Assembly (NCBI GenBank): GCA_046757165.1
Contig: JBHHXT010000125.1
Span: forward strand, 1-13,454
DNA from: a bacterium
GTDB lineage: Bacteria; Zhuqueibacterota; Zhuqueibacteria; Oceanimicrobiales; Oceanimicrobiaceae
DNA: 13,454 nt
Direction of reading: 5' to 3'
Under the pieces are notes generated by a model, which saw only the letters and a program-made list of their open reading frames with translations, was not told the DNA's origin and did no database searches. The position numbers were made by a program, and so were the translations under genes. Position 1 is the stretch's first letter, and every line of letters starts with the position of its first letter. Below, piece by piece: positions 1 to 12,522 of this stretch.

Positions 1-3000
1 CGGGATAACAGTGGAGTTCGACTTCTTGAACTTCCATTTACCCTTCTTGACCGTTTTGGTTCCGATGACCGGACCGCTGAGCGTTGGGCCGAGATGAATG
101 GTGACGATGTTGCCGGAGCCTTTGAAGCTGCTCCTGCCATAGACCTTCCATTGTCTTTTCTTTTGTTTGAAATCGACCTTTGTTAACGAGAGGGTGTCCG
201 GGCCACCGCCGCCGCCGCCACCGCCACCTGATGGCGTTCCGCTTATTGCGACCGGAACGGCGAGCAGAACACCGCCCTTGCTCGATTCAATACTGACCGT
301 ATCCCCCGCGCTCGGAATAACACTGGAGTGCGACTTCTTGAACTTCCATTTCCCCTTCTTCAGGGCCTTGGTTCCGATGACCGGGCCGCTAAGCGTTGGA
401 CCGAGGTGGATGGTTACGGTATGGCCGGAGCCCTTGAAGGTACTCTTACCATAGACCTTCCATCGATCCCTACCATGTTTGAAACTGACCTTTGTGGTCG
501 TGAGGGTATCCGGGCCAGCACCGCCGCCGCCACCACCGCCACCTGATGGCGTTCCGCTTATTGCGACCGGAACGGCGAGCAGAACACCGCCCTTGCTCGA
601 TTCAATACTGACCGTATCCCCCGCGCTCGGAATAACACTGGAGTGCGACTTCTTGAACTTCCATTTCCCCTTCTTCAGGGCCTTGGTTCCGATGACCGGG
701 CCGCTAAGCGTTGGACCGAGGTGGATGGTTACGGTATGGCCGGAGCCCTTGAAGGTACTCTTACCATAGACCTTCCATCGATCCTTACCATGTTTGAAAC
801 TGACCTTTGTGGTCGTGAGGGTATCCGGGCCAACATCACCACTTGACGGTGTTCCGGTTTCTTCGACAGGTACAGCCAGGAGGACACCGCCCTTGCTCGA
901 TGCGAAACTCAGGGTCTTGCTGGCATCGGGCACGATGCTGGAGACTTCCTTGAACTTCCACTTGCCGGATTTGCTAACCTCATCGGTGCCGATGACGGTA
1001 CCGGTGAGATCCGAACCCAGGTAGATGGTAACCGCGTTACCTGGTCCATCCACAGAAGTTTTGCCTTTGATGTTCCAGCGTCCTTTATTGTGCTCATATC
1101 GGGCCCGGCTGACCGTGATGACATCGTCGCCCGGGGGAGTATCTGGCTGGTCACTGATGATCACCAGGGCTTCCGCCACGCCTTCGAGCTCGCTGGGGCG
1201 AATCAGATCGCGGTACTCGACTCTAACCGTGTACTCGCCAGGTGCGAGGTTCTTCGCCAGGCACCCGGTGCGCTGCGCCGTCTCCATTTCTATGGGATCC
1301 CCGCTGTTGATGGCAAAGGGGTGTGCATACCCATGATTGGAATGCGAACCGCCGGTGGAGGAGGGGAATAAGGGCCGGCCGTCGATTTCGATCACTTCGA
1401 CGTCGAATGGAAACTCTATCAGCGCGATACAGTAGCACGCATTGAGCAGACGGAAGAGGATGATGTCGTCCGGTTTCGCGCGCGCCACCACCTTCGGGTC
1501 GGTCATGGTATTCGGATGCGGCACGCCGTTGATCATGAAGTATTTCGGGTTGAAGTTGTTCAAGCCCACGTCTTCGCCGCACATGCCCGCATTGTGGCCG
1601 CCCGGCAGGTCACGCCAGTCCGGGTCGACATCCGCAATCGCCCACGCGACTTCGACGTCGTAACGCGAAGCTGGATCCGAGCACAATTTACCCGGACCAT
1701 CCGGCGGATCGACGATCAGCAGACCAGACATGCCCATCTGAAAATGCAAGACGGTGTTTTTGTGGCAGTGGTAAAAAAAGGTGCCGGCCTGAGCCGCCTG
1801 CCACTGGTAGGTGTAGCGCGATTCGACCTCAAAGGAATTATGCGGCACACCGTCGTTGAAGGAAGTGGGCTCGATACCGTGCCAGTGAATGGTATGGGAA
1901 CCCTTTTTCACTTTTAGCTCACAATGAATCTTCTGGCCTTCCCGCACCCGGATTAAAGGCGCCGGAATGGAGCCCCGGGTACTCCGGTCGTCCGGGTCCT
2001 CAAATCCCCAGAAACGCACTTTCTTGCCGTCCGGCATCCGGATGTCACGGTTGCCGAAGAATTCCCGTTTGATGAAGACATCGACCTCGCTTTTCGGAAG
2101 CTTGTCCGGCGTACTCGGACTGATTTCCAGCGGCTTACACCCGAACTGCTCAAACGAGATGTCATGAGGCGTGTTGGTAAATGAACCGTCATTGCCAGGG
2201 TCGGCAGTCGTGGGCTCCGTTATGTGCCAATCATTCATGATCCCTTGCGGGTACATGCCGCCGGCCGCCGTAGTCGAGATCTCGTCATGGGGATGGATGG
2301 GCCACGTAAGAGGGAACCCTTCCTCCTTGGGAGGCCACAGCCCCTGAGGAACATCAGGTGGTCTCCTGAACGGCAGGAGCACATCGATGCATTTCAACGG
2401 CTTCACCGTCCAGGTATCGAGCTCGATGACATTATCCTGGGGCTCGTTCACGCCGCTGCTGTTGACCTTCGAGATCAGGTAGACATGGTTGCCGTGGATG
2501 TGCGGCGGTCGCGTTCCCAGGCCGGCCATCATGGTGCGGAGAACGGCCGGTTCGCCTTCTTTGCCGCGCGGTGAGGTGTTCAAATTATGGGCGATGAACC
2601 ATCCGCTGTCACCGTTGAGCGTAAAATAGCGCGGCAGAAAGCCGGCCACAAAGGCGGTGGGATTGATGACATCTCCCCTGTCTGCGCGCTCATTCCACTT
2701 GGGATCGATCTCATTGAAAACCCAGACCCAGGACCGGCCATTGGGATAGACTCGTTTGTCATCCCAGCCAATACCGGGAAACCCCTTCGAGGCGTCTCCA
2801 AGATCTTCAAACAACTTGGTGACCCGCGAGGTGGGATTGCTATAGGGGGTGACTTCGCTGGGGTCACTTGGCAGAACCACCAGGGCGCCGTGCAAACCGA
2901 GAACACGGTTCACCGGCGCGTTGAGGGGGTCGAGGTACATGTAGGTTCCGGCACGCGGGACATCGAATTCGATCAGCTTTGTCTGTCCCGGAGTGATGAC

Positions 3001-3327
3001 GCCGATGTCGATGATGGGCGGAGGCATGCCGTGGATGGCGAAGCCGTGGTTCTCTGCGGAGTTGTTGGTGATTCGACAGCGGATCCGGTCCCCTTCCACC
3101 GCCTCGATGACCGGGCCAGGGACCCGCGGGCCGCCGTTGTTAACATCGTTGTAAGCCCACATGAAAACGGTCGTCCCGTCGACCATCTCAACGTCTACCG
3201 CCTCGATGGTCAGGTCAAGATCGATCGTCCCGCCATAGGCTTTTCTCGTGGGCATGAGCGCATATCTGCCCACGGCCAGAGTCACAATTCCTGCCGTTCC
3301 ATACTTGATGAATTCTCGTCTTTTCAT
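1..3327 (-). CDS. Tat-exported multicopper oxidase-like protein: four cupredoxin-like domains plus at least 4 C-terminal Ig-like repeats; partial, at least 1109 aa, 3' end outside the window
   Basis: Not in the ORF track. Manual translation from ATG at 3327 (GGAG 7 nt upstream) is open to position 1. It starts MKRREFIKYGTAGIVTLAVG...AYG (twin-arginine motif). Copper motifs: H276-I-H278 (PPHIHGNH), H345-P-H347, H478-T-I-H481-W-H483, and H520-C521-H522...H528...M533 (YHCHKNTVLHFQMGM). Typical MCO segments PGPVIEAVEGDRI and PAPLIRVREGQKI are present. Confidence 0.93.
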   Translation of the reverse strand, partial: MKRREFIKYGTAGIVTLAVGRYALMPTRKAYGGTIDLDLTIEAVDVEMVDGTTVFMWAYNDVNNGGPRVPGPVIEAVEGDRIRCRITNNSAENHGFAIHGMPPPIIDIGVITPGQTKLIEFDVPRAGTYMYLDPLNAPVNRVLGLHGALVVLPSDPSEVTPYSNPTSRVTKLFEDLGDASKGFPGIGWDDKRVYPNGRSWVWVFNEIDPKWNERADRGDVINPTAFVAGFLPRYFTLNGDSGWFIAHNLNTSPRGKEGEPAVLRTMMAGLGTRPPHIHGNHVYLISKVNSSGVNEPQDNVIELDTWTVKPLKCIDVLLPFRRPPDVPQGLWPPKEEGFPLTWPIHPHDEISTTAAGGMYPQGIMNDWHITEPTTADPGNDGSFTNTPHDISFEQFGCKPLEISPSTPDKLPKSEVDVFIKREFFGNRDIRMPDGKKVRFWGFEDPDDRSTRGSIPAPLIRVREGQKIHCELKVKKGSHTIHWHGIEPTSFNDGVPHNSFEVESRYTYQWQAAQAGTFFYHCHKNTVLHFQMGMSGLLIVDPPDGPGKLCSDPASRYDVEVAWAIADVDPDWRDLPGGHNAGMCGEDVGLNNFNPKYFMINGVPHPNTMTDPKVVARAKPDDIILFRLLNACYCIALIEFPFDVEVIEIDGRPLFPSSTGGSHSNHGYAHPFAINSGDPIEMETAQRTGCLAKNLAPGEYTVRVEYRDLIRPSELEGVAEALVIISDQPDTPPGDDVITVSRARYEHNKGRWNIKGKTSVDGPGNAVTIYLGSDLTGTVIGTDEVSKSGKWKFKEVSSIVPDASKTLSFASSKGGVLLAVPVEETGTPSSGDVGPDTLTTTKVSFKHGKDRWKVYGKSTFKGSGHTVTIHLGPTLSGPVIGTKALKKGKWKFKKSHSSVIPSAGDTVSIESSKGGVLLAVPVAISGTPSGGGGGGGGAGPDTLTTTKVSFKHGRDRWKVYGKSTFKGSGHTVTIHLGPTLSGPVIGTKALKKGKWKFKKSHSSVIPSAGDTVSIESSKGGVLLAVPVAISGTPSGGGGGGGGGPDTLSLTKVDFKQKKRQWKVYGRSSFKGSGNIVTIHLGPTLSGPVIGTKTVKKGKWKFKKSNSTVIP
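218..832. repeat. Near-identical intragenic tandem duplication, period 315 bp (Ig-like repeats 2 and 3 of the MCO), flanked by more divergent copies at ~835-1131 and <1-~205
   Basis: 533-832 matches 218-517 with one mismatch seen (785 T vs 470 C, Lys/Arg). Units are joined by poly-Gly linkers (GCC/ACC runs at ~202-228 and ~520-543). Confidence 0.92.
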
Positions 3328-3424
3328 GACAATCTCCAACTTAACCTATTTTGTGAGTCACTTTGCTCTGATTTGGTGCTGTGTCGCACTGAGTTCTTAC
3401 GTGTGAGAGAGAACTGCCGTCTTT

Positions 3425-4396
3425 TCATCGTCTTCTTATCCGTTCGACCGTGACTCCACCATCTCGCAGCAGCCTTCCTCGAACTTCAACATAATTGCCA
3501 ATGGAGGGATTTTTCTTCAACCGCGTGTTTCCGTTTACCAGGAGCAGCAAGCCATCCAGCGTCCAGCGGCCATCGAGGTGGCCGCGCAATCTCACTTTAG
3601 CGCCTTGCGGAATCGGGGCTCGGTTCCCATTCGAGTCCGGAGCGCCTTGCCGAATCCACGCTGTGATCAGCGCAATCTCCTGGTCATTCAAATAGGGTGG
3701 CCCGTCTAAGGGCATCCTGGGTAAGGATTGACCGCGTATTTTTCGAACGAGTTCACTCGCTTCTGGATTTCCAGAAACGACCCGGGCCCGGTAGTCAGCC
3801 GTGATGATAGCGTCATAATCGTCTAAGTGCAAATTCTCTGGCGCGGGTCCCCTCAGACCCTTTCTCGCATGGCACTTGACGCACTTCACCTTAAAGATCG
3901 GCGCGACATCATCATAAGTGATGCTGCTCATCGTTGATGATGAATCTGCGCTCCCTCTTCTAACCTCGTCTTCTTTCGTTTGTTGAATGGCTGACTCGTG
4001 TGGTTCGGGCATGCCGGCGGTTATCCATCGCTCCAGCACAGCGATCTCTGCTTCAGACAGCCATGGCGGACCCGAAAAAGGCATCCTGGGCTCACTCAAA
4101 CCACGAACTCGCAAAATCAATTCGCTCTCTTGCGGTTTTTCTGCCACAACCACGGGGCCGTCTTCGCTTCCTGCTAGAACATCGCCGTAATTATCCAACC
4201 GTAAGTCAAGCGGAGCATTCGGGCCGTTATGGCAGGCGATACAGTGGAGGTCGAAAATCTCGGCTACCTCCGTGTAGCTGACATCGTCGCCTGTTAATAT
4301 CGGCATCCCTTCGATGCAAGTGAACGGAAAGAGAAGCTCGTTTGAACAAAAAAACAGAAAAACGATCAAGCCAGTTATGTACTCAGATCTTGTCAT
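3425..4396 (-). CDS. Di-heme c-type cytochrome (two planctomycete cytochrome C-like domains) with a C-terminal DUF5666-like beta domain
   Basis: Two CxxCH motifs (CIACH, CVKCH). Each sits in the pattern 'Y..VA.IF...CxxCH....L.LD.Y......V..P..SEL....G...PRMP..GPP.L...EI.....WI..G.P'. Hydrophobic N-terminus. The C-terminus 'LLVNGNTRLKKNPSIGNYVEVRGRLLRDGGVTVERI' resembles DUF5666. Confidence 0.88.
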   Translation of the reverse strand: MTRSEYITGLIVFLFFCSNELLFPFTCIEGMPILTGDDVSYTEVAEIFDLHCIACHNGPNAPLDLRLDNYGDVLAGSEDGPVVVAEKPQESELILRVRGLSEPRMPFSGPPWLSEAEIAVLERWITAGMPEPHESAIQQTKEDEVRRGSADSSSTMSSITYDDVAPIFKVKCVKCHARKGLRGPAPENLHLDDYDAIITADYRARVVSGNPEASELVRKIRGQSLPRMPLDGPPYLNDQEIALITAWIRQGAPDSNGNRAPIPQGAKVRLRGHLDGRWTLDGLLLLVNGNTRLKKNPSIGNYVEVRGRLLRDGGVTVERIRRR

Positions 4397-4462: not shown

Positions 4463-5266
4463 CTACTTGATGAGCATCATTTTCTTCGTTTCAACAAAAC
4501 GACCGGCTTCCAATCGATAGACATAGTAGCCGCTGGCATAACGTCTGGCGTCAAAAACAACCTTGTGCGCGCCTGCGGTTTGCCGTTCGTCGACCAAGGT
4601 GACGACCTCCTGGCCGAGAATATTGAATATCTTCAGCTTGACCCGCGTCTCCTTTGGTATCGAATAATTGATCGTGGTCGACGGGTTGAACGGATTCGGA
4701 TGATTCTGGCTCAGCTGGAAAGTCTCGATGGTCGTCTCGCTCTCCTGCCCAAGACTCTCCTCGCCTGCGACCGGGGCCATGCTGAGCGCATAGACCTCGG
4801 AACCGCCGGCCGAAAACGACAGCGTCCAGCCAGTGACAGCCAACTTATCCGAATTCTCAGCGCTGTAGGTTTTTTTCCAGAGAAGTTTGCGCCTGGCATC
4901 GGTTTTTCTCAGGTTGACCCGGTAATCGCCGGCTGCGGTCCGTTGGTAGGAAACAGTCATGATTCCTCCTGCGGGAGTCTTGATAACAGCCTGCCCTTTA
5001 CCGAATTCCGGCCCGCCAATGCGTTTGCTCCACAGCGGCACGCTGGTGGATCTTGGACGCGTGTGATAGTCCTCGAGCATGCGAAAGTCGGCCGGTTCGA
5101 CATAGTAGGCGCTCGACTTTGTCAGAGTCACTTCCAGATCCCCGGCAGCGTCATACCTGCCATATGTCGTTGTCCAGAGCGTATTGCCCCGGGCAAAACC
5201 GTCTGCACCGGCAGCAAGCATCGCTACGGTGAACAGCACTGTGATTGTTAACACATTTTTTAGCAT
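4463..5266 (-). CDS. Secreted protein with degenerate beta-propeller-type repeats and a T9SS type A/FlgD-Ig-like C-terminal sorting domain (267 aa)
   Basis: Start moved to ATG 5266: AAGGAG lies 8 nt upstream and a signal peptide MLKNVLTITVLFTVAMLAAGA follows. Repeats LWTTTYG, LWSKRIGG and LWKKTYS. The C-terminus is LSQNHPNPFNPSTTINYSIP...SGYYVYRLEAGRFVETKKMMLIK. Confidence 0.85.
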   Translation of the reverse strand: MLKNVLTITVLFTVAMLAAGADGFARGNTLWTTTYGRYDAAGDLEVTLTKSSAYYVEPADFRMLEDYHTRPRSTSVPLWSKRIGGPEFGKGQAVIKTPAGGIMTVSYQRTAAGDYRVNLRKTDARRKLLWKKTYSAENSDKLAVTGWTLSFSAGGSEVYALSMAPVAGEESLGQESETTIETFQLSQNHPNPFNPSTTINYSIPKETRVKLKIFNILGQEVVTLVDERQTAGAHKVVFDARRYASGYYVYRLEAGRFVETKKMMLIK

Positions 5267-5403
5267 TCTTTCATCTCCTTCTGTAGATAGAAGGCTCTCA
5301 GCCACCAAGTGAATAATTCTGTTTATTCAGACAGTCGTCCTTCTTTGTTTCGACTATCACCTCCTTCGCAGATGATTAAATTGCTTCTTTGGCCAACCAG
5401 TTC

Positions 5404-8400
5404 TTATTTAACCATTAACATTCTTCTCGTGCGAACAAAGTCTGCCGACTGCAACCGGTAGACGTAGACGCCGGACCCGACCTGTTCGCCGGCATCATTC
5501 TTGCCGTCCCAGTTCACGGTGTGCAGTCCAGCAGGCATGACGCCATGGACCAACGTGCGGACCCTCTGTCCCAGGACGTTGTAAACCTCCAGACGCGTCT
5601 TCACCTCTTTCGCCAGGGCGAAGTGGATGGAGGTGCTGGGATTGAACGGGTTAGGAAAGTTTTGCTCCAGCCCGAATTCTTTGGGAAGGGTGCCATTTCC
5701 GAGGTCCCCTTGTGCGCCCAGATTGACCGCCAGCAAGACCTTCTTTGACAGGAAGGGGTCCCCGTTCAGGAACGGTTGGATGGCCGGCCCACCCGCTGCG
5801 CCGACGGCCGGGATTTCCAGCAACAGGGTGACACCGCTATTCTCGTCATGTCCGTCCGGTGCGAAGAACTGCGGGCCGTCAAATGGCTTCTTTCTGAGAC
5901 GCACGCGTTCGTCGGTCAGGCTCAGCAGGAAGGCCACCAGATCGTCTTTGTCTTGTTCTGTCAGGCCCAGCGGTCTGATCTCGGGCGCTAACGTGCGCAG
6001 ATTTTGGTCTGAAAAATCGCCGCCCCGGTTGTAAAAATCGACCACCTGTCTCAACGTGGCCTGGCCGCCATTATGAAAATAGGGGCCGGTCAATTCGACG
6101 TTGCGCAGGGTCGGTACCTTGAAGGCCCCATCCGCAGCGTCGGCTTCACCCAGAGCGCCGATGGCTGGGGTGAACTCATGAGCGCCACCCAGACCGCCGC
6201 CCGGGACGCCTTTACGAATATCAGCACGGCCCGGCTGCAACAATTCCATCTTCGCAAGCGACAATGGATTGCCAAATGGATCGTTGCCGCCGTTGCCGAT
6301 GTCCTCGGCTATCGACCGAACGCCGATGTCATAATAACCGATGTCGTAGACCACATCGACGACAGCTTCCATCGTGCCACGTTTGACGCCGTCCACGAAG
6401 AAATCGTAGAACCCTGCCGGGAATCCTACCAGCTCGACGCTCAAGTCGACCGAACAATTCGAGAAAAAGTTCATCTCCACGCCAGCGAGCATGAGGGGAT
6501 CGGTGAGCACGCCAGTGCTAAAAAGCGGCACGATGATGAGGTCGTCCACACACGGTCCCGCGGGCGGCAGCGGGCCAGGCGTGCCAGGCATGTGGCCGAA
6601 AAACAGAACCGTTCCCGTGGCATCGCGGACCTCGAGCAGCTTCCCACGGGGATCGAAGCCCAGCGCCACCTGCTGCTCGCCGGCCGCAGGCCCGATCGCA
6701 TCACCGGCAACGAAAGCCAGCGAGGCCTTGCCGCCACCGAAAGCCCCGGGCATACGCTCGACGATGGTTTCTGCGATGTCTTCCGGCTCAAAGGGCTGCG
6801 GCGGCTCAATTGAGCCGATGAAACTGACGCTGGCCGAAGTAAACTCCGGGCCCACATGACAGTTGATACAAAAACCCGCCGGTACCGTGGGGTCCAGCCC
6901 AAAATTGGTGAAAATCCTGAACCCTCTCTTCTGCTGTTCTGTGAGAGCGTTCGCATCGCCAGACCTGAATCGGTCAAAGGGCGCGTCATCGGAGATCAAC
7001 GTGGCCTCATAGCACTGCACGGCCAGGCCAAAAATCATGGAAAAATTAGCCTCCATAAGCGTATACTGGTCCGTCGTCAGCGCGCCCACCGGGGGTGGAC
7101 CGATAGTGGCGATCGTGCCGTCCGGATTGAAGGTCATGATGTTATCGGAGTCCCACCATCTGGGATCGAAGGCCGCCTTGACCAGGTCTGCGTAGGAGGT
7201 GTTGAGACCCTTGGCCGGATAGTTGGACAGGAGCCCCAGCTCACTATCGCTCTTATCGACCAATTGCTTACCCAGGGGAACGATCGCGGGATGGAGCAGC
7301 TTCTTACCGAGCTTGGGCCAGATGCGGCCGGCCCCGGACATCTCGACATCACTCATTGGCGGACCCGTGGCTTGTGAAGCCGCGCTGGAAAGGGGCAGAC
7401 AGATGGACACGGCAGAGGCCGGTGTCCCACCCGGGCCATCGGTATCCATGAGCACCCTGGCGTTGGGGTCACGAGCGCCAAACGGATTGACGCCGTTGAA
7501 GTTGTTGAAGGCACGGCCGTCCCAGAAGTTGCGGAAATTAAACACCGCGTTGATCACAGGCGGAGCATTTCGCCCGGTCGTACGCCGGACATTAAAGTGG
7601 CCCGTGTTGAATGGATTATCCACGGCGATAGGCGTCGTGTTGTCTTCAGCGAATCCGGGAGTGATGTCGTTGAACACCGAGCCCAGCACCCCCATGGCGC
7701 CGGTGATGTCATCGGCGTCGGACACGACACGCGAAAACCGGTCATTCGGATTGGATAACTTGTGATATGGAAAATCACTTAGAGACAAAGTATGGTTGAC
7801 ATCCCCGACGTCGAACCTCCCGTTGCCTGCGGGGTGGAGCTCGTTGGTGACTCGGGTATCGGCCCCGGCATTGAAATGGCAGCTCGCACACGCCTGGATG
7901 CCATCGCTGCCCACCTGCATCTCCCAGAAAAGAGCCTTGCCGAGCTTGATGGCAGCCGCTTTGTCCACAATGAAATCGCTAAAAGGAACCGGATTCCCGT
8001 CTATTTCCGAGGAGAGGGCCCGGTCGATGGCGGCCAGATTATCCGGCCCCGGCACCGGGATGCTGGAAAGCGGACCGGGAAGCCGCCCCTGCCGCAAAAC
8101 CAGGATCTGGACGTCATCGAAAACTTCCACTTCTCCGTCGCTAACCTTGAGACGGAAGACATACAAGCCACGCTTGTTGAACGTCAGCGTGGGGTTCAAA
8201 ACATTTGCATTCGGAGCAAAAACCACCTGGTCCGGGCCACCATCCTCAGGAGGATGCGGGAATTCAGGCGGATGAAGGGGATCGATCGGCGTCAACACCC
8301 ATTCAAACGCAAGGGCGCCGGGTGGTACAGGCTGACCATCATCGCTGACCGTCGCCTGGAGCACCGTCGTGTTGGTTTCGCCAAGGTCGATGAGCTGAAA

Positions 8401-11349
8401 CCTGCCGGCATCGACGATAGGCGGCCTATTTGCGTTCGGGTCGTATTCGACAACCAATTCAGGCCTCGTCATTCCTTCTTTGGAGCTGTAGGCAAGGGTA
8501 TTCTTCGAGCCAGGCTGGATGCAGAAACTATAAACGCCATCTGCAACCACGGCTGAGGTCACATCGAATTCTACGATTTCGTCAACGGCGACAGGGCCAA
8601 TGGAACTGAGCGCGCCGCTTGTAATCGGCGGGGCATTGCCGAAGATTAAGCCCGCCTCATTCCAGAAAGCGTTGCTGCTCAGATAGGTGTTGGAAGTCAG
8701 GAAGATGGTGCCGCCGCTACCGCTTCGGTTCGTCACCTTGAGACGAACCTTAGCGCTCACGACAGGCCCACCGAGGCCGGTCACATTGAATTTCAAATAA
8801 GCGAGGTCTTTCGAGCTCCCTTTTTTCTTCAACTTGAGCTGAGTGCTGGCGCCGAAGTTTTTGGTCGGTTTTTTTGATCGAACATAGGCGTCATCTATGA
8901 CGTTGGCCGTGACGGTCTGTGGGCCGACTCCCGGCGCCGGGTCAACCGTCACATTTATCGGGTCGAGCGCAGTAGCGCCCTGGTCATCCATGACGGTGAG
9001 CGTGACATGATGCGTTCCAACCGTGAAGTTGTGGTTCGGATTGACACCCACTGCGATTTGATTTCCCCCTTCGCTCCAGACGTAGCTGACGATGTTGCCG
9101 TCCGGGTCAGAGGACTGAGAGCCGTCGAGGGCAACGTTTTCTGAGCCGCTATTGTCGGTATCGGTGACATTCTGGTCGGGGCCAGCGTTGGCGACCGGCA
9201 GGAAGTTTCCGTTCGCGTCGGTTTCGAGGACTAATCTGGGCTTGGTGGAGCCTTCCTTGGAACTAAAGATGAGCGTATTCCTAGAGCCATTCTCGAGACA
9301 GAAGCTATAAACGCCATCCGCAACCACCGCAGAGGTGACATCAAATTCCACGATATCGTCAACGGCGACAGGGCCAACAGAGCTCAGGGCAGGTCCGATG
9401 GTCTCAGGGGCATTGCTGAACGTGAGGCTCCCTTCGGTCCAGGGAACGCTGCTGCCTTGCGAGTTATTGGAAGCCGGGAAGATGGTGCCACCGTCGTCGC
9501 TTCTGTTGGTCACCCTGAGAAAAATCTTTGCACTCCGAACAGGTCCATTCAAGCCTGCGACATGGAATTTCAAATAAGAGCGGGTGGTCGACTGGCCCTT
9601 TTTCTTGAGTTTGAGTTGAGTTTTGAAGCCGTAGTTTTTCTTCGGTTTGGTTGACTTGACATAGGCGTCATCTATGGGCGTAACGGTCACGGTTCCCGGA
9701 CCGCCTCCGGCAGCCGCTTCAACGGTCACCGATACCTGGTCCTGTGCCACCGCGCCCTGGTTATCGGTAGCCGCGAGTGTGACATGATGCGTTCCAACCG
9801 TGAAGTTGTGGTTCGGATTGACACCCACTGCGATTTGATTTCCCCCTTCGCTCCAGACGTAGCTGACGATGTTGCCGTCCGGGTCAGAGGACTGAGAGCC
9901 GTCGAGGGCAACGTTTTCTGAGCCGCTATTGTCGGTATCGGTGACATTCTGGTCGGGGCCAGCGTTGGCGACCGGCAGGAAGTTTCCGTTCGCGTCGGTT
10001 TCGAGGACTAATCTGGGCTTGGTGGAGCCTTCCTTGGAACTAAAGATGAGCGTATTCCTAGAGCCATTCTCGAGACAGAAGCTATAAACGCCATCCGCAA
10101 CCACCGCAGAGGTGACATCAAATTCCACGATATCGTCAACGGCGACAGGGCCAACAGAGCTCAGGGCAGGTCCGATGGTCTCAGGGGCATTGCTGAACGT
10201 GAGGCTCCCTTCGGTCCAGGGAACGCTGCTGCCTTGCGAGTTATTGGAAGCCGGGAAGATGGTGCCACCGTCGTCGCTTCTGTTGGTCACCCTGAGAAAA
10301 ATCTTTGCACTCCGAACAGGTCCATTCAAGCCTGCGACATGGAATTTCAAATAAGAGCGGGTGGTCGACTGGCCCTTTTTCTTGAGTTTGAGTTGAGTTT
10401 TGAAGCCGTAGTTTTTCTTCGGTTTGGTTGACTTGACATAGGCGTCATCTATGGGCGTAACGGTCACGGTTCCCGGACCGCCTCCGGCAGCCGCTTCAAC
10501 GGTCACCGATACCTGGTCCTGTGCCACCGCGCCCTGGTTATCGGTAACCGCGAGTGTGACAAGATGTGTTCCGACCGTAAAGTTGTGGCTGGGGCTGATC
10601 CCGACTTCGATTGGGTTGCCTCCTTCGCTCCACACATAGCTGACAATGTTCCCGTCCGGGTCAAATGAACCGCTGCCGTCCAGGGTGACCGGCTCGTCGC
10701 CACCGTTATCGTTGTCGGTGACCGTTTGGTCATTGCCCGCGTTGGCCACGGGAGGCTGATTTCCGCCGCCACCACCGCCGCTGCCCGTGACGATGACCAG
10801 CTCGGGCCGGTGTAACGGTGCTGCCTCTTTGGAACTGTATTGTGCACTCTGGACTGCCGCTTTCTTCAATCCAAAGCTGAATGTGCCATTCCCCACAACG
10901 GCGGCCGTGACATCCAGCTCAACCCATTCACCCACTGAAACACGACCCAGAGAACTCAATGCAGCGCTGGTGATGGCCGGCGCGTTGTTCCAGTTGAGAG
11001 AGGCCTCATCCCAGGGAGTTGTCGTCCCCTGGAAAAAATTCGAGACTAAGAATGCCGAACCGCCCGCTTTGCTCTTGCGCACGACAAACAAACGCAACGT
11101 CGCCTTCTGCACCGCACCGGTGAGTCCGGTAACTTCGAATTTAAGATAAGAGCGCAGAATCGTCGTTCCGTTCACTGAGCCTTCTCGAAGCCTCAGGGTC
11201 GCTAAGGCACCATAGTTTCTCGTCGGCCGGCTGGATTTGACTTGCGCGTCGTCGGTAGGATGGAAAATAATCTGATTTTGAGCTAAACCAAACGATGGGC
11301 TTAGAATGGCCGTTACGATGGCGAGCCATACAATTCGCTGAAACCTCAT
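5404..11349 (-). CDS. Large secreted di-heme enzyme of the bacterial cytochrome c peroxidase/MauG superfamily with 4x(DNRLRE + PKD) N-terminal modules and a FlgD-Ig/T9SS-type C-terminal domain (1981 aa)
   Basis: Sec signal (aa 1-23), with GGGAG upstream of the ATG. DNRLRE-like modules (DDAYV...NYG...SYLKF...W.E..L....AP...SSKE...P.LV) at ~10786-11271, 9995-10465, 9218-9688 and 8445-8915, each followed by a PKD-like module (PVANAG.DQ...LDGS.S.DPDG.IVSYVW; the 4th is a PIVDAG variant). Heme motifs CASCH (7876-7890) and CINCH (6856-6870). Also LGKALFW, GRNAP, FWDGRA, FKVPTLRNVELTGPYFHNG and DLVAFLLSLTD. The C-terminus is QNFPNPFNPST...WDGKNDAGEQVGSGVYVYRL. Confidence 0.95.
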   Translation of the reverse strand: MRFQRIVWLAIVTAILSPSFGLAQNQIIFHPTDDAQVKSSRPTRNYGALATLRLREGSVNGTTILRSYLKFEVTGLTGAVQKATLRLFVVRKSKAGGSAFLVSNFFQGTTTPWDEASLNWNNAPAITSAALSSLGRVSVGEWVELDVTAAVVGNGTFSFGLKKAAVQSAQYSSKEAAPLHRPELVIVTGSGGGGGGNQPPVANAGNDQTVTDNDNGGDEPVTLDGSGSFDPDGNIVSYVWSEGGNPIEVGISPSHNFTVGTHLVTLAVTDNQGAVAQDQVSVTVEAAAGGGPGTVTVTPIDDAYVKSTKPKKNYGFKTQLKLKKKGQSTTRSYLKFHVAGLNGPVRSAKIFLRVTNRSDDGGTIFPASNNSQGSSVPWTEGSLTFSNAPETIGPALSSVGPVAVDDIVEFDVTSAVVADGVYSFCLENGSRNTLIFSSKEGSTKPRLVLETDANGNFLPVANAGPDQNVTDTDNSGSENVALDGSQSSDPDGNIVSYVWSEGGNQIAVGVNPNHNFTVGTHHVTLAATDNQGAVAQDQVSVTVEAAAGGGPGTVTVTPIDDAYVKSTKPKKNYGFKTQLKLKKKGQSTTRSYLKFHVAGLNGPVRSAKIFLRVTNRSDDGGTIFPASNNSQGSSVPWTEGSLTFSNAPETIGPALSSVGPVAVDDIVEFDVTSAVVADGVYSFCLENGSRNTLIFSSKEGSTKPRLVLETDANGNFLPVANAGPDQNVTDTDNSGSENVALDGSQSSDPDGNIVSYVWSEGGNQIAVGVNPNHNFTVGTHHVTLTVMDDQGATALDPINVTVDPAPGVGPQTVTANVIDDAYVRSKKPTKNFGASTQLKLKKKGSSKDLAYLKFNVTGLGGPVVSAKVRLKVTNRSGSGGTIFLTSNTYLSSNAFWNEAGLIFGNAPPITSGALSSIGPVAVDEIVEFDVTSAVVADGVYSFCIQPGSKNTLAYSSKEGMTRPELVVEYDPNANRPPIVDAGRFQLIDLGETNTTVLQATVSDDGQPVPPGALAFEWVLTPIDPLHPPEFPHPPEDGGPDQVVFAPNANVLNPTLTFNKRGLYVFRLKVSDGEVEVFDDVQILVLRQGRLPGPLSSIPVPGPDNLAAIDRALSSEIDGNPVPFSDFIVDKAAAIKLGKALFWEMQVGSDGIQACASCHFNAGADTRVTNELHPAGNGRFDVGDVNHTLSLSDFPYHKLSNPNDRFSRVVSDADDITGAMGVLGSVFNDITPGFAEDNTTPIAVDNPFNTGHFNVRRTTGRNAPPVINAVFNFRNFWDGRAFNNFNGVNPFGARDPNARVLMDTDGPGGTPASAVSICLPLSSAASQATGPPMSDVEMSGAGRIWPKLGKKLLHPAIVPLGKQLVDKSDSELGLLSNYPAKGLNTSYADLVKAAFDPRWWDSDNIMTFNPDGTIATIGPPPVGALTTDQYTLMEANFSMIFGLAVQCYEATLISDDAPFDRFRSGDANALTEQQKRGFRIFTNFGLDPTVPAGFCINCHVGPEFTSASVSFIGSIEPPQPFEPEDIAETIVERMPGAFGGGKASLAFVAGDAIGPAAGEQQVALGFDPRGKLLEVRDATGTVLFFGHMPGTPGPLPPAGPCVDDLIIVPLFSTGVLTDPLMLAGVEMNFFSNCSVDLSVELVGFPAGFYDFFVDGVKRGTMEAVVDVVYDIGYYDIGVRSIAEDIGNGGNDPFGNPLSLAKMELLQPGRADIRKGVPGGGLGGAHEFTPAIGALGEADAADGAFKVPTLRNVELTGPYFHNGGQATLRQVVDFYNRGGDFSDQNLRTLAPEIRPLGLTEQDKDDLVAFLLSLTDERVRLRKKPFDGPQFFAPDGHDENSGVTLLLEIPAVGAAGGPAIQPFLNGDPFLSKKVLLAVNLGAQGDLGNGTLPKEFGLEQNFPNPFNPSTSIHFALAKEVKTRLEVYNVLGQRVRTLVHGVMPAGLHTVNWDGKNDAGEQVGSGVYVYRLQSADFVRTRRMLMVK
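9002..10561. repeat. Near-perfect intragenic tandem duplication, period 777 bp (259 aa DNRLRE+PKD unit)
   Basis: 9002-9784 matches 9779-10561. By eye only one mismatch (9770 G vs 10547 A). The shadow ORFs 9335-9577 and 10112-10354 are identical and 777 bp apart. Confidence 0.95.
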
Positions 11350-12039: not shown

Positions 12040-12522
12040 TCAAAATATCAGCCGCACCAGCAGCGGATAGTCTACATGAGATGTTATTATCTCACAGTTG
12101 GCACAATCTACATCCCCCGGAAACCGGTCACAGTCGGCACATTCTTCCAGAATTGTGCGAGAGTTCTCCAAATCAGCTTTGATTCTTTGATACCTCTCAA
12201 TCTGCCTTTCCGCTTCTTCTGCATACTGGTCTAACTGGCTGAGTATCTTCTTTACAACCTGACCCATTGTCGTTCCGTGTTTCTTGGAGGAACACAACTC
12301 TTTTATTTCGACCAGGGGTAGATTCATGCTCTTCAGATAGTGTACCAGTTTTATTCTGTAGACATCATCTTTCGAAAACAATCGAAAACCACCTTCGCTT
12401 CGGTCAAAGGGTTCCAATAAACCCAATTCTTCATAATACCGAATCGTGCGAATGGTCAAGCCAGTTTCCCTGGCAAGTTCTCCTATCTTTATCGCTGTAG
12501 ACTGCCTAAAGCGTCTGCTCAT
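12040..12522 (-). CDS. MerR-family transcriptional regulator with a C-terminal four-cysteine motif
   Basis: N-terminal MerR HTH (KIGELARETGLTIRTIRYYEELGLL...RSEGGFRLF...LKSMNLPLVEIKE), a coiled-coil, then CADC-x8-CANC. Confidence 0.93.
   Translation of the reverse strand: MSRRFRQSTAIKIGELARETGLTIRTIRYYEELGLLEPFDRSEGGFRLFSKDDVYRIKLVHYLKSMNLPLVEIKELCSSKKHGTTMGQVVKKILSQLDQYAEEAERQIERYQRIKADLENSRTILEECADCDRFPGDVDCANCEIITSHVDYPLLVRLIF

Follow-up and report, generated by a model that had tools for sequence, protein, structure and literature searches.

A predicted multicopper oxidase of four cupredoxin domains with its copper ligands in the two middle domains, and its likely origin from a two-gene pair

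The stretch of DNA analysed here (the window) comprises all 13,454 nucleotides (nt) of contig JBHHXT010000125.1 (C125), one of the 531 contigs of a metagenome bin (GCA_046757165.1) assigned to the phylum Zhuqueibacterota. The public sequencing runs that hold the window are labelled hydrothermal vent metagenome, with no RNA dataset listed among them. We examined a gene at one end of the window that encodes a predicted multicopper oxidase (MCO). A preliminary description had placed a hidden open reading frame (ORF) for a four-domain oxidase at 1140..3327; the ORF was real, but it proved to be an ordinary long minus-strand frame rather than a hidden one, and instead of ending at 1140 it ran through a repeat region, open from the ATG at 3327 to base 1 (1109 amino acids (aa) by translation). 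The plus strand of 1140-3327 was full of stops, and a GGAG sits 7 nt 5' of the ATG. The window spans the entire contig, so the 3' end of the gene is lost at the contig end, and its continuation was not found on any other contig of this genome. The protein as encoded consists of a twin-arginine (Tat) signal and four cupredoxin domains, followed by four C-terminal repeats. For what follows, domains 1 and 2 are called module 1, and domains 3 and 4 module 2; all coordinates of the gene are on the minus strand.

The Tat-type signal peptide (aa 1-32, MKRREFIKYG..., 3232..3327) was assigned from its RR motif by the Tat consensus; it matched no signal model of Pfam or NCBIfam and was modelled at a predicted local distance difference test (pLDDT) score of ~30. 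Domain 1 (aa 34-152, 2872..3228) contains no HxH motif and no copper ligands, and was identified by PF07732 (41.5 bits at 2866-3198) and by single-cupredoxin fold matches of aa 34-153 in a wide structural search (Z 11-12). Domain 2 (aa 199-372, 2212..2733) holds four predicted cluster His and no type-1 copper site, with the codons of H276-I-H278 at 2494..2502 and those of H345-P-H347 at 2287..2295. It is followed by an inter-module linker (aa 373-416, 2080..2211) that matches the N-terminal tail of module-2 proteins encoded separately in other genomes, whose alignments start from aa 374-406 of the query. Domain 3 (aa 417-545, 1693..2079), recognized by Pfam Cu-oxidase_3 and by its motifs, carries the type-1 ligands together with four further cluster His, encoded at 1879..1896 (H478-T-I-H481-W-H483) and 1729..1770 (H520-C521-H522 ... 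H528 ... M531, M533). Domain 4 (aa 556-725, 1153..1662) has a cupredoxin fold without HxH or copper ligands, and aligns, together with domain 3, to two-domain MCOs. The Pfam models Cu-oxidase_3 (93.5 bits, cut-off 21, best stretch aa 452-542) and Cu-oxidase_2 (41.7 bits, cut-off 20.4) both scored above their cut-offs on this ORF and, with fold matches of up to Z 25.9, place the protein in the MCO superfamily.

The rest of the protein (aa 730-1109, 1..1140) is made up of four tandem repeats of ~105 aa with Gly-rich linkers, anchored at aa 750, 850, 955 and 1059, of which the last is cut by the contig end. Tandem Repeats Finder (TRF) reported a period of 315 with 2.7 copies and 91% matches. No Pfam family fits the repeat, an atlas look-up returned unnamed clusters only (best score 0.87), and comparison with the DUF5666 domain of the cytochrome encoded upstream found no similarity. 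Contigs of three runs carry a 384-nt in-frame joint (45 to 430) within this region, so that the number of repeats is uncertain; complete relatives bear 0-2 such repeats at their C-termini.

Translation placed all of the residues named in the preliminary description (R273, H276, H278, H345, P346, H347, H478, H481, H483, H520, C521, H522, H528 and M533) at their proposed positions. The 1109 aa contain just four HxH motifs, beginning at residues 276, 345, 481 and 520, and domains 1 and 4 therefore hold none, as had been claimed. The MCO ligand set is complete in the window: eight predicted cluster His in four HxH pairs (H276/278 and H345/347 in domain 2, H481/483 and H520/522 in domain 3) and one type-1 set of the His-Cys-His(-Met) kind in domain 3 (H478, C521, H528, M533), its Cys lying inside the HCH triad. 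The proposed count of eight cluster His and one type-1 set, all within the two middle domains, was thus borne out. In domain 2, the positions of the type-1 His and Cys are occupied by R273 and P346.

We then examined how well these ligands are kept among relatives. Since an alignment that mixed fused, module-1 and module-2 sequences mis-aligned the homologous modules (~20% identity, 2064 columns), fused rows only were used instead, and in these the eight His together with H478, C521 and H528 formed invariant columns in 28/28 relatives. Separately, module profiles were scanned over 80 related loci and the window, which yielded 70 module-1 and 76 module-2 sequences. H276, H278, H345 and H347 were His in all 70 of the former, and H478, H481, H483, H520, C521, H522 and H528 were kept in all 76 of the latter; position 533 was Met in 64 and Leu in 12 of the 76, and position 531 was Met in 65. 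With this invariance (28/28 fused, 70/70 module-1 and 76/76 module-2 sequences), the ligand pattern is far beyond chance. Position 273 was His in 63 of the 70 module-1 sequences (Arg in 5) and position 346 was Cys in 60 (Pro in 4, Asp in 5, Asn in 1). As the window has Arg and Pro here, its clade appears to have erased the type-1-like remnant of domain 2 further than most relatives. In most relatives the His and Cys at positions 273 and 346 may represent the remnant of a site or a site of unusual kind; most module-1 relatives have this type-1-like His/Cys in domain 2 but no downstream His. Other conserved positions of module 1 were E349 (69/70) and T353 (70/70). H94 and D133 of domain 1 and H578 of domain 4 were invariant in 28/28 fused proteins despite the absence of a known copper motif; when fused and split forms were taken together, H94 was found in 57/70 and D133 in 58/70.

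The four-domain protein had been interpreted as a fusion of two differentiated two-domain subunits, with the prediction that separate searches with its two halves would find them as adjacent split genes elsewhere. Such pairs were found, and the fusion reading was supported. In a genome scan of one genome per species, 520 stretches were confirmed and the best 80 loci kept; in 58 of these 80 a module-1 gene was directly followed by a module-2 gene on the same strand, the order in the 58 pairs always being module 1 to module 2. One fused ORF was present at 17 of the best 80 loci, module 2 only, at a contig end, at three, and broken frames at two (L078, L079). An exhaustive protein search returned 4278 proteins at E <= 0.001, including 225 at E <= 1e-30; of the best 150 representatives, 145 matched one module only and 5 spanned both. 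A word-indexed search gave many proteins of 400-525 aa that covered only aa 1-373. The matching stretches, at least 520 in number, included those of cultured Sphingomonas, Arthrobacter, Microvirga and Methylobacterium. The family is rare in the phylum of the window, with matches at E <= 1e-30 in 3 of 167 genomes, one of them the window's own. The complete relatives are 713-934 aa long and have only repeats added beyond the four domains. The names given in databases to proteins of this family are limited to multicopper oxidase domain-containing protein or FtsP/CotA-like. Judged by the distribution of split and fused forms, the oxidase gene likely arose by joining the two genes of an enzyme pair found widely among bacteria.

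It is conceivable that the fusion is an artefact of assembly or reading frame, or that the protein is a decayed, non-catalytic relic, as the contig belongs to a metagenome bin in 531 pieces and ends inside repeats. However, contigs of three public runs tiled positions 803-3500 without indels, including the junction between the modules (2071-2211), which records 6/7, 13/14 and 19/20 crossed with 0 gaps and no stop; the stop or frameshift that would have counted against the preliminary description was thus not seen, with the qualification that two of the runs holding the contig may be the assembly's own source. In addition, eight fused relatives of 62-78% identity and the same layout were found in other assemblies, and all of the ligands are invariant across several bacterial phyla. 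We regard an artefact or a relic as very improbable, and consider the oxidase to be a real and likely functional architectural variant of MCOs.

To place the fused forms among the split ones, we used a quick maximum-likelihood tree of module 2 with 76 rows, from which fused proteins of the P0012 group (a Thermodesulfobacteriota type) were left out. The fused forms fell into two well-separated groups: 14 Actinomycetota rows formed one clade, to which the split form L043 is sister, and the window's clade of 4 rows was the other. Three label changes were counted on the tree, one of them being a copy in L002 that was left unlabelled with its module 1 cut by the contig start; L002, one of the eight fused relatives mentioned above, carries two tandem copies on a single contig. 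Judged by this tree, fused forms occur in at least two separate clades, which requires a minimum of two fusions, or else a single fusion followed by several splits.

The export signals of the split forms were inspected by eye. All 17 module-1 proteins inspected had a twin-arginine signal, and of 28 module-2 proteins 26 had no signal, one had a clear one (P0147) and one was doubtful. A subunit without a signal beside a subunit with a Tat signal is the pattern of Tat hitchhiker export. As module 2 is mostly without a signal beside a module 1 that has one, this pattern implies that the split modules would fold and bind before export and be exported as a complex. Fused proteins of the Arthrobacter type (L035, L046, L052, L055, L066, L067, L075, L080) appear to begin at domain 1 with no signal peptide, so that they may be cytoplasmic, unlike the forms with a Tat signal. 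A Nitrospina genome paper was considered as a relevant source and set aside, since in the passages concerned its oxidase is MnxG-like and its remarks on hitchhiker export are about NXR (PMC3578206).

We compared the oxidase with the established kinds of MCO. The part of a 2026 paper that sets out the classes (PMC13151041) gives two-domain trimers, three-domain monomers and six-domain monomers only, and places the type C enzymes among the homotrimeric two-domain MCOs. The preliminary description had put the four-domain architecture outside this two-, three- and six-domain scheme, and the published classification agrees with that. No description of a four-domain or heteromeric MCO was found in the openly readable literature, where the matches to our search terms were judged by their titles and the starts of their abstracts; the four-domain architecture and its two-gene origin are not described in the literature reached.

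Module 2 most resembles the type C enzymes mgLAC (2zwn) and the blue copper oxidase of Nitrosomonas europaea (3g5w), with which it shares the two-domain fold and the position of the type-1 site in the N-terminal domain; the HTIHWHG and YHCH motifs are the same in all three. Aa 415-729 superposed on 2zwn with Z 25.9 at a root-mean-square deviation (rmsd) of 2.5 Å (260-261 residues aligned, 28% identity), in accordance with the earlier view of module 2 as a two-domain MCO unit. Domain 2 of 2zwn shows H-D-H, the form that is also present in domain 2 of module 1 in 5/70 relatives. In a type C homotrimer every chain contributes four cluster His from each of its two domains. In contrast, each module here keeps the His of one domain only, neither module having eight, so that two unlike modules are needed and only one cluster could form per pair; in the window, moreover, both modules belong to one chain of four domains.

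In the three-domain MCOs (laccase, CueO, CotA, MoxA), as predicted for the window oxidase, each chain bears a single type-1 copper and a single trinuclear cluster, the eight His of which are arranged as four HxH pairs, but these enzymes carry their four motifs at opposite ends of a chain of ~500 aa, whereas those of the window protein lie in its middle domains. The ORF did not reach the cut-offs of the NCBIfam models for CopA (86.9 bits against 478.95), CueO (53.9 against 525), laccase (41.5 against 558.9) or ascorbate oxidase (61.3 against 614.8). MoxA of Pedomicrobium was tried as a named member of the present family and rejected: in the part of its description that deals with the motifs, the protein has 476 aa with motifs A and B N-terminal and C and D C-terminal (PMC3618234), and all four motifs within 476 aa make it a three-domain enzyme.

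The closest matches in sequence and fold also included proteins of other function, NirK and the archaeal two-domain MCO Nmar_1354 (9cck), which raises the possibility that the copper site is real and serves a chemistry other than the oxidation of a substrate coupled to O2 reduction, for example the conversion of a nitrogen oxide, as in NirK, or the oxidation of hydroxylamine. The relevant part of the study of Nmar_1354 reports that this protein oxidises NH2OH, and that its core is a trimer of equivalent chains, with the clusters between them, while its extra domain bears a type-1 copper (PMC11761707). It resembles the window oxidase in having domains added to a two-domain core, and superposed on module 2 with Z 24.3 and an rmsd of 2.5 Å over 250 residues, but the extra domains of the window oxidase bear no copper ligands. 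A dihaem cytochrome c gene directly upstream would suit such a chemistry as well. Against it, domain 3 shows the HxxHxH...HCH pattern of MCOs, including the His on both flanks, there are eight cluster His overall, and the NirK equivalog model TIGR02376 scored 79.8 bits, short of its cut-off of 296.3. NirK has a type-2 site of three His rather than an eight-His cluster. Taken together, these observations make the alternative chemistry improbable in our judgement, and the chemistry of the oxidase is most likely ordinary for an MCO.

The structure of aa 1-729 was predicted with AlphaFold from a 28-row alignment, at a mean pLDDT of 74.3 and a predicted template modelling (pTM) score of 0.81; the stretches of low confidence were 1-31, 328-343, 350-404, 488-501 and 575-590. 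The first structural search list was filled by two-domain matches, and Foldseek ranked six-domain proteins first at rmsd values of 9-12 Å, figures that we did not rely on. In the wide structural search, the whole model fitted four consecutive domains of six-domain MCO folds (ceruloplasmin, MnxG and coagulation factors V and VIII) as one rigid body, with rmsd values of 3.9-4.7 Å over 476-531 residues and 14-16% identity. The individual superpositions were on rat ceruloplasmin (5n0k_A; Z 19.1, 3.9 Å, 497 aligned, model 33-729 on chain 1-695), venom factor V (4bxs_V; Z 21.3, 4.2 Å, 484 aligned, model 30-727 on chain 318-1115), MnxG (9bxa_A; Z 16.9, 4.3 Å, 531 aligned, model 30-729 on chain 440-1211) and factor V (7kve_B; Z 18.7, 4.2 Å, 490 aligned, model 32-725 on chain 1-654). 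The modelled four domains would thus form two thirds of a six-domain ring. As the model superposes on four consecutive ring domains, the contact of domains 2 and 3 corresponds to an inter-module contact position of the ring. By the pseudo-symmetry of the ring, contacts of this kind house the cluster where domains 6 and 1 of ceruloplasmin meet and where the chains of two-domain trimers meet. Ceruloplasmin has kept a trinuclear cluster at only one inter-module contact, as is predicted for the window oxidase. The window protein differs in that it has four cupredoxin domains followed by unrelated repeats, covering only four positions of the ring, and in that its cluster is predicted between the two middle domains rather than between the first and the last.

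We also evaluated a split pair, that of Sphingomonas sp. Leaf20 (L009), as a modelled complex. In three runs the pair reached an interface score (ipSAE) of 0.94, and the best of three controls scored 0.00; that mark was reached by 116/157 solved complexes and 2/215 mismatched pairs, counts that apply here only approximately because the pair was modelled from our own alignments. The runs shared at least 89% of their contacts, and the pLDDT of the partners was at least 90. The confident interface included H302, H304 and H371 of module 1 and H109 and H111 of module 2, which correspond to H276, H278, H347, H481 and H483 of the window, that is, to five of the eight cluster His, and 59 of its 66 module-1 residues lay in the second domain of that module. 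Where type C enzymes are homotrimers, the relatives of the window oxidase are two unlike genes at 58 of the best 80 loci, and the model of this hetero-pair passed the complex test.

These results are consistent with the following reading, which we consider probable: the minus-strand frame 3327..1 encodes a four-cupredoxin oxidase with a Tat signal, a predicted type-1 copper in domain 3 and a predicted trinuclear cluster between domains 2 and 3, which would likely reduce O2 to water. We propose that a two-domain MCO, either of type C or of type A, gave rise to both modules, and that module 1 would have lost all ligands of its first domain and module 2 all ligands of its second, so that a cluster could be built only where domain 2 of module 1 meets the first domain of module 2. 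In the split form the folded complex would be exported by the Tat pathway, with module 1 carrying the signal-less module 2, and in the window's lineage the two genes would have been joined through a linker of ~45 aa. Electrons would enter one at a time from a donor at the type-1 copper (H478, C521, H528, M533) and be relayed by the H520-C521-H522 triad, as in other MCOs, to the trinuclear cluster, where O2 would be reduced to water between the four His of domain 2 and the four of domain 3. The dihaem cytochrome c encoded next to the oxidase might serve as the donor, or else a metal ion.

Several observations weigh against this reading. The segment bearing H345 and H347 was modelled weakly (pLDDT 51 at aa 341-350 and 32 at aa 351-360), and a prediction of domains 2 and 3 alone was poor (pLDDT 50.6, pTM 0.45). 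A module-1 profile searched against PDB sequences matched only domain 1, domain 2 giving nothing. The equivalents of H345, H520 and H522 were absent from the listed confident contacts of the Leaf20 pair. As homotrimeric two-domain MCOs are already among the solved structures, the score of that pair may partly stem from structures already known to the predictor, reflecting likeness to these enzymes and not binding. The ORF is without its 3' end, leaving the C-terminus of the protein incomplete. Finally, the four domains fill only two thirds of a six-domain ring, and the window's genome has no other MCO module to close it, a search of that genome with Cu-oxidase_3 having found no match beyond domains 1 and 3 of this ORF.

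This open ring would also suit an arrangement in trans, in which domains 2 and 3 of different chains meet in a domain-swapped dimer or a higher oligomer; the sites would then lie between chains, as they do in the classical two-domain enzymes. The long linker was modelled weakly (pLDDT below 50 over aa 350-404), and the split forms show that a covalent link is not needed. However, the monomer model packs the four domains together at the pTM given above and fits four consecutive ring domains, and in the modelled Leaf20 pair the N-terminal tail of module 2, the equivalent of the linker, lies on module 1 and provides 16 interface residues, which fits an arrangement in cis. We therefore judge a cluster in trans to be unlikely, though less so than a different chemistry, and continue to favour a cluster between domains 2 and 3 of a single chain.

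A broader proposal, for which the chances seem to us evenly balanced, is that these proteins constitute a fourth structural class of MCO, in which two half-disabled two-domain modules pair as a heterodimer, share one trinuclear cluster where they touch, and have been joined on more than one occasion into a four-domain chain that makes up two thirds of the classical six-domain ring. Such a class would be a living step from the homotrimeric two-domain enzymes with three clusters towards single chains with a single cluster. A path of this kind, by duplication and fusion, has been proposed for the origin of ceruloplasmin-type enzymes. If the proposal is true, the family would extend the textbook classes by two forms, one heteromeric and encoded by two genes, the other fused and of four domains. 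It would offer a case in which duplicated subunits divided their labour, with one half of an interface metal site retained in each, before their genes were fused repeatedly. The number of working enzymes would then be overestimated in genome surveys that score the halves as separate two-domain laccases, and either half expressed alone would likely have no complete trinuclear cluster.

The genes upstream of the oxidase lie on the same minus strand. The nearest (3425..4396) encodes the dihaem cytochrome c (CIACH, CVKCH; PSCyt1 67.1 bits, Cytochrom_C 39.1 bits) with the DUF5666 domain; the same cytochrome gene precedes the MCO in L002, and it is possible that its product is the electron partner of the oxidase. 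Next come a 281-aa protein (4463-5308) with a type 9 secretion system (T9SS) type A sorting tail, the N-terminal part of which matches no family, kept beside the oxidase in L002 and L003, and a 1981-aa protein (5404-11349) in which Pfam recognized four CBM96 domains, PKD, two CCP_MauG (dihaem peroxidase) domains, an RHS repeat and a FlgD_ig C-terminus. L003 has a protein similar to the latter next to its oxidase, and L002 has a CBM96 fragment there. The cytochrome, the protein with the T9SS tail and the CBM96/PKD/CCP_MauG protein precede the oxidase in the window's clade, the set being present also in L002 and partly in L003. Further upstream is a MerR-family regulator (12040-12522), which resembles metal-sensing members of that family (CadR/PbrR 69.8, CueR 64.5 and ZntR 60.9 bits, all below the cut-offs).

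Among a hand-picked 56 ORFs from 12 of the 80 loci, no neighbour gene was common across phyla. In Microvirga and Methylobacterium the split pair is immediately followed by genes for the SCO1/SenC copper chaperone (L058:8527-9222, L054:8439-9799), with two copies in L054. In Sphingomonas sp. Leaf20, the gene after the split pair (L009:9327-14274, plus strand) encodes 1649 aa that combine an animal haem peroxidase domain with RTX repeats, the make-up of the Mn-oxidising peroxidase MopA.

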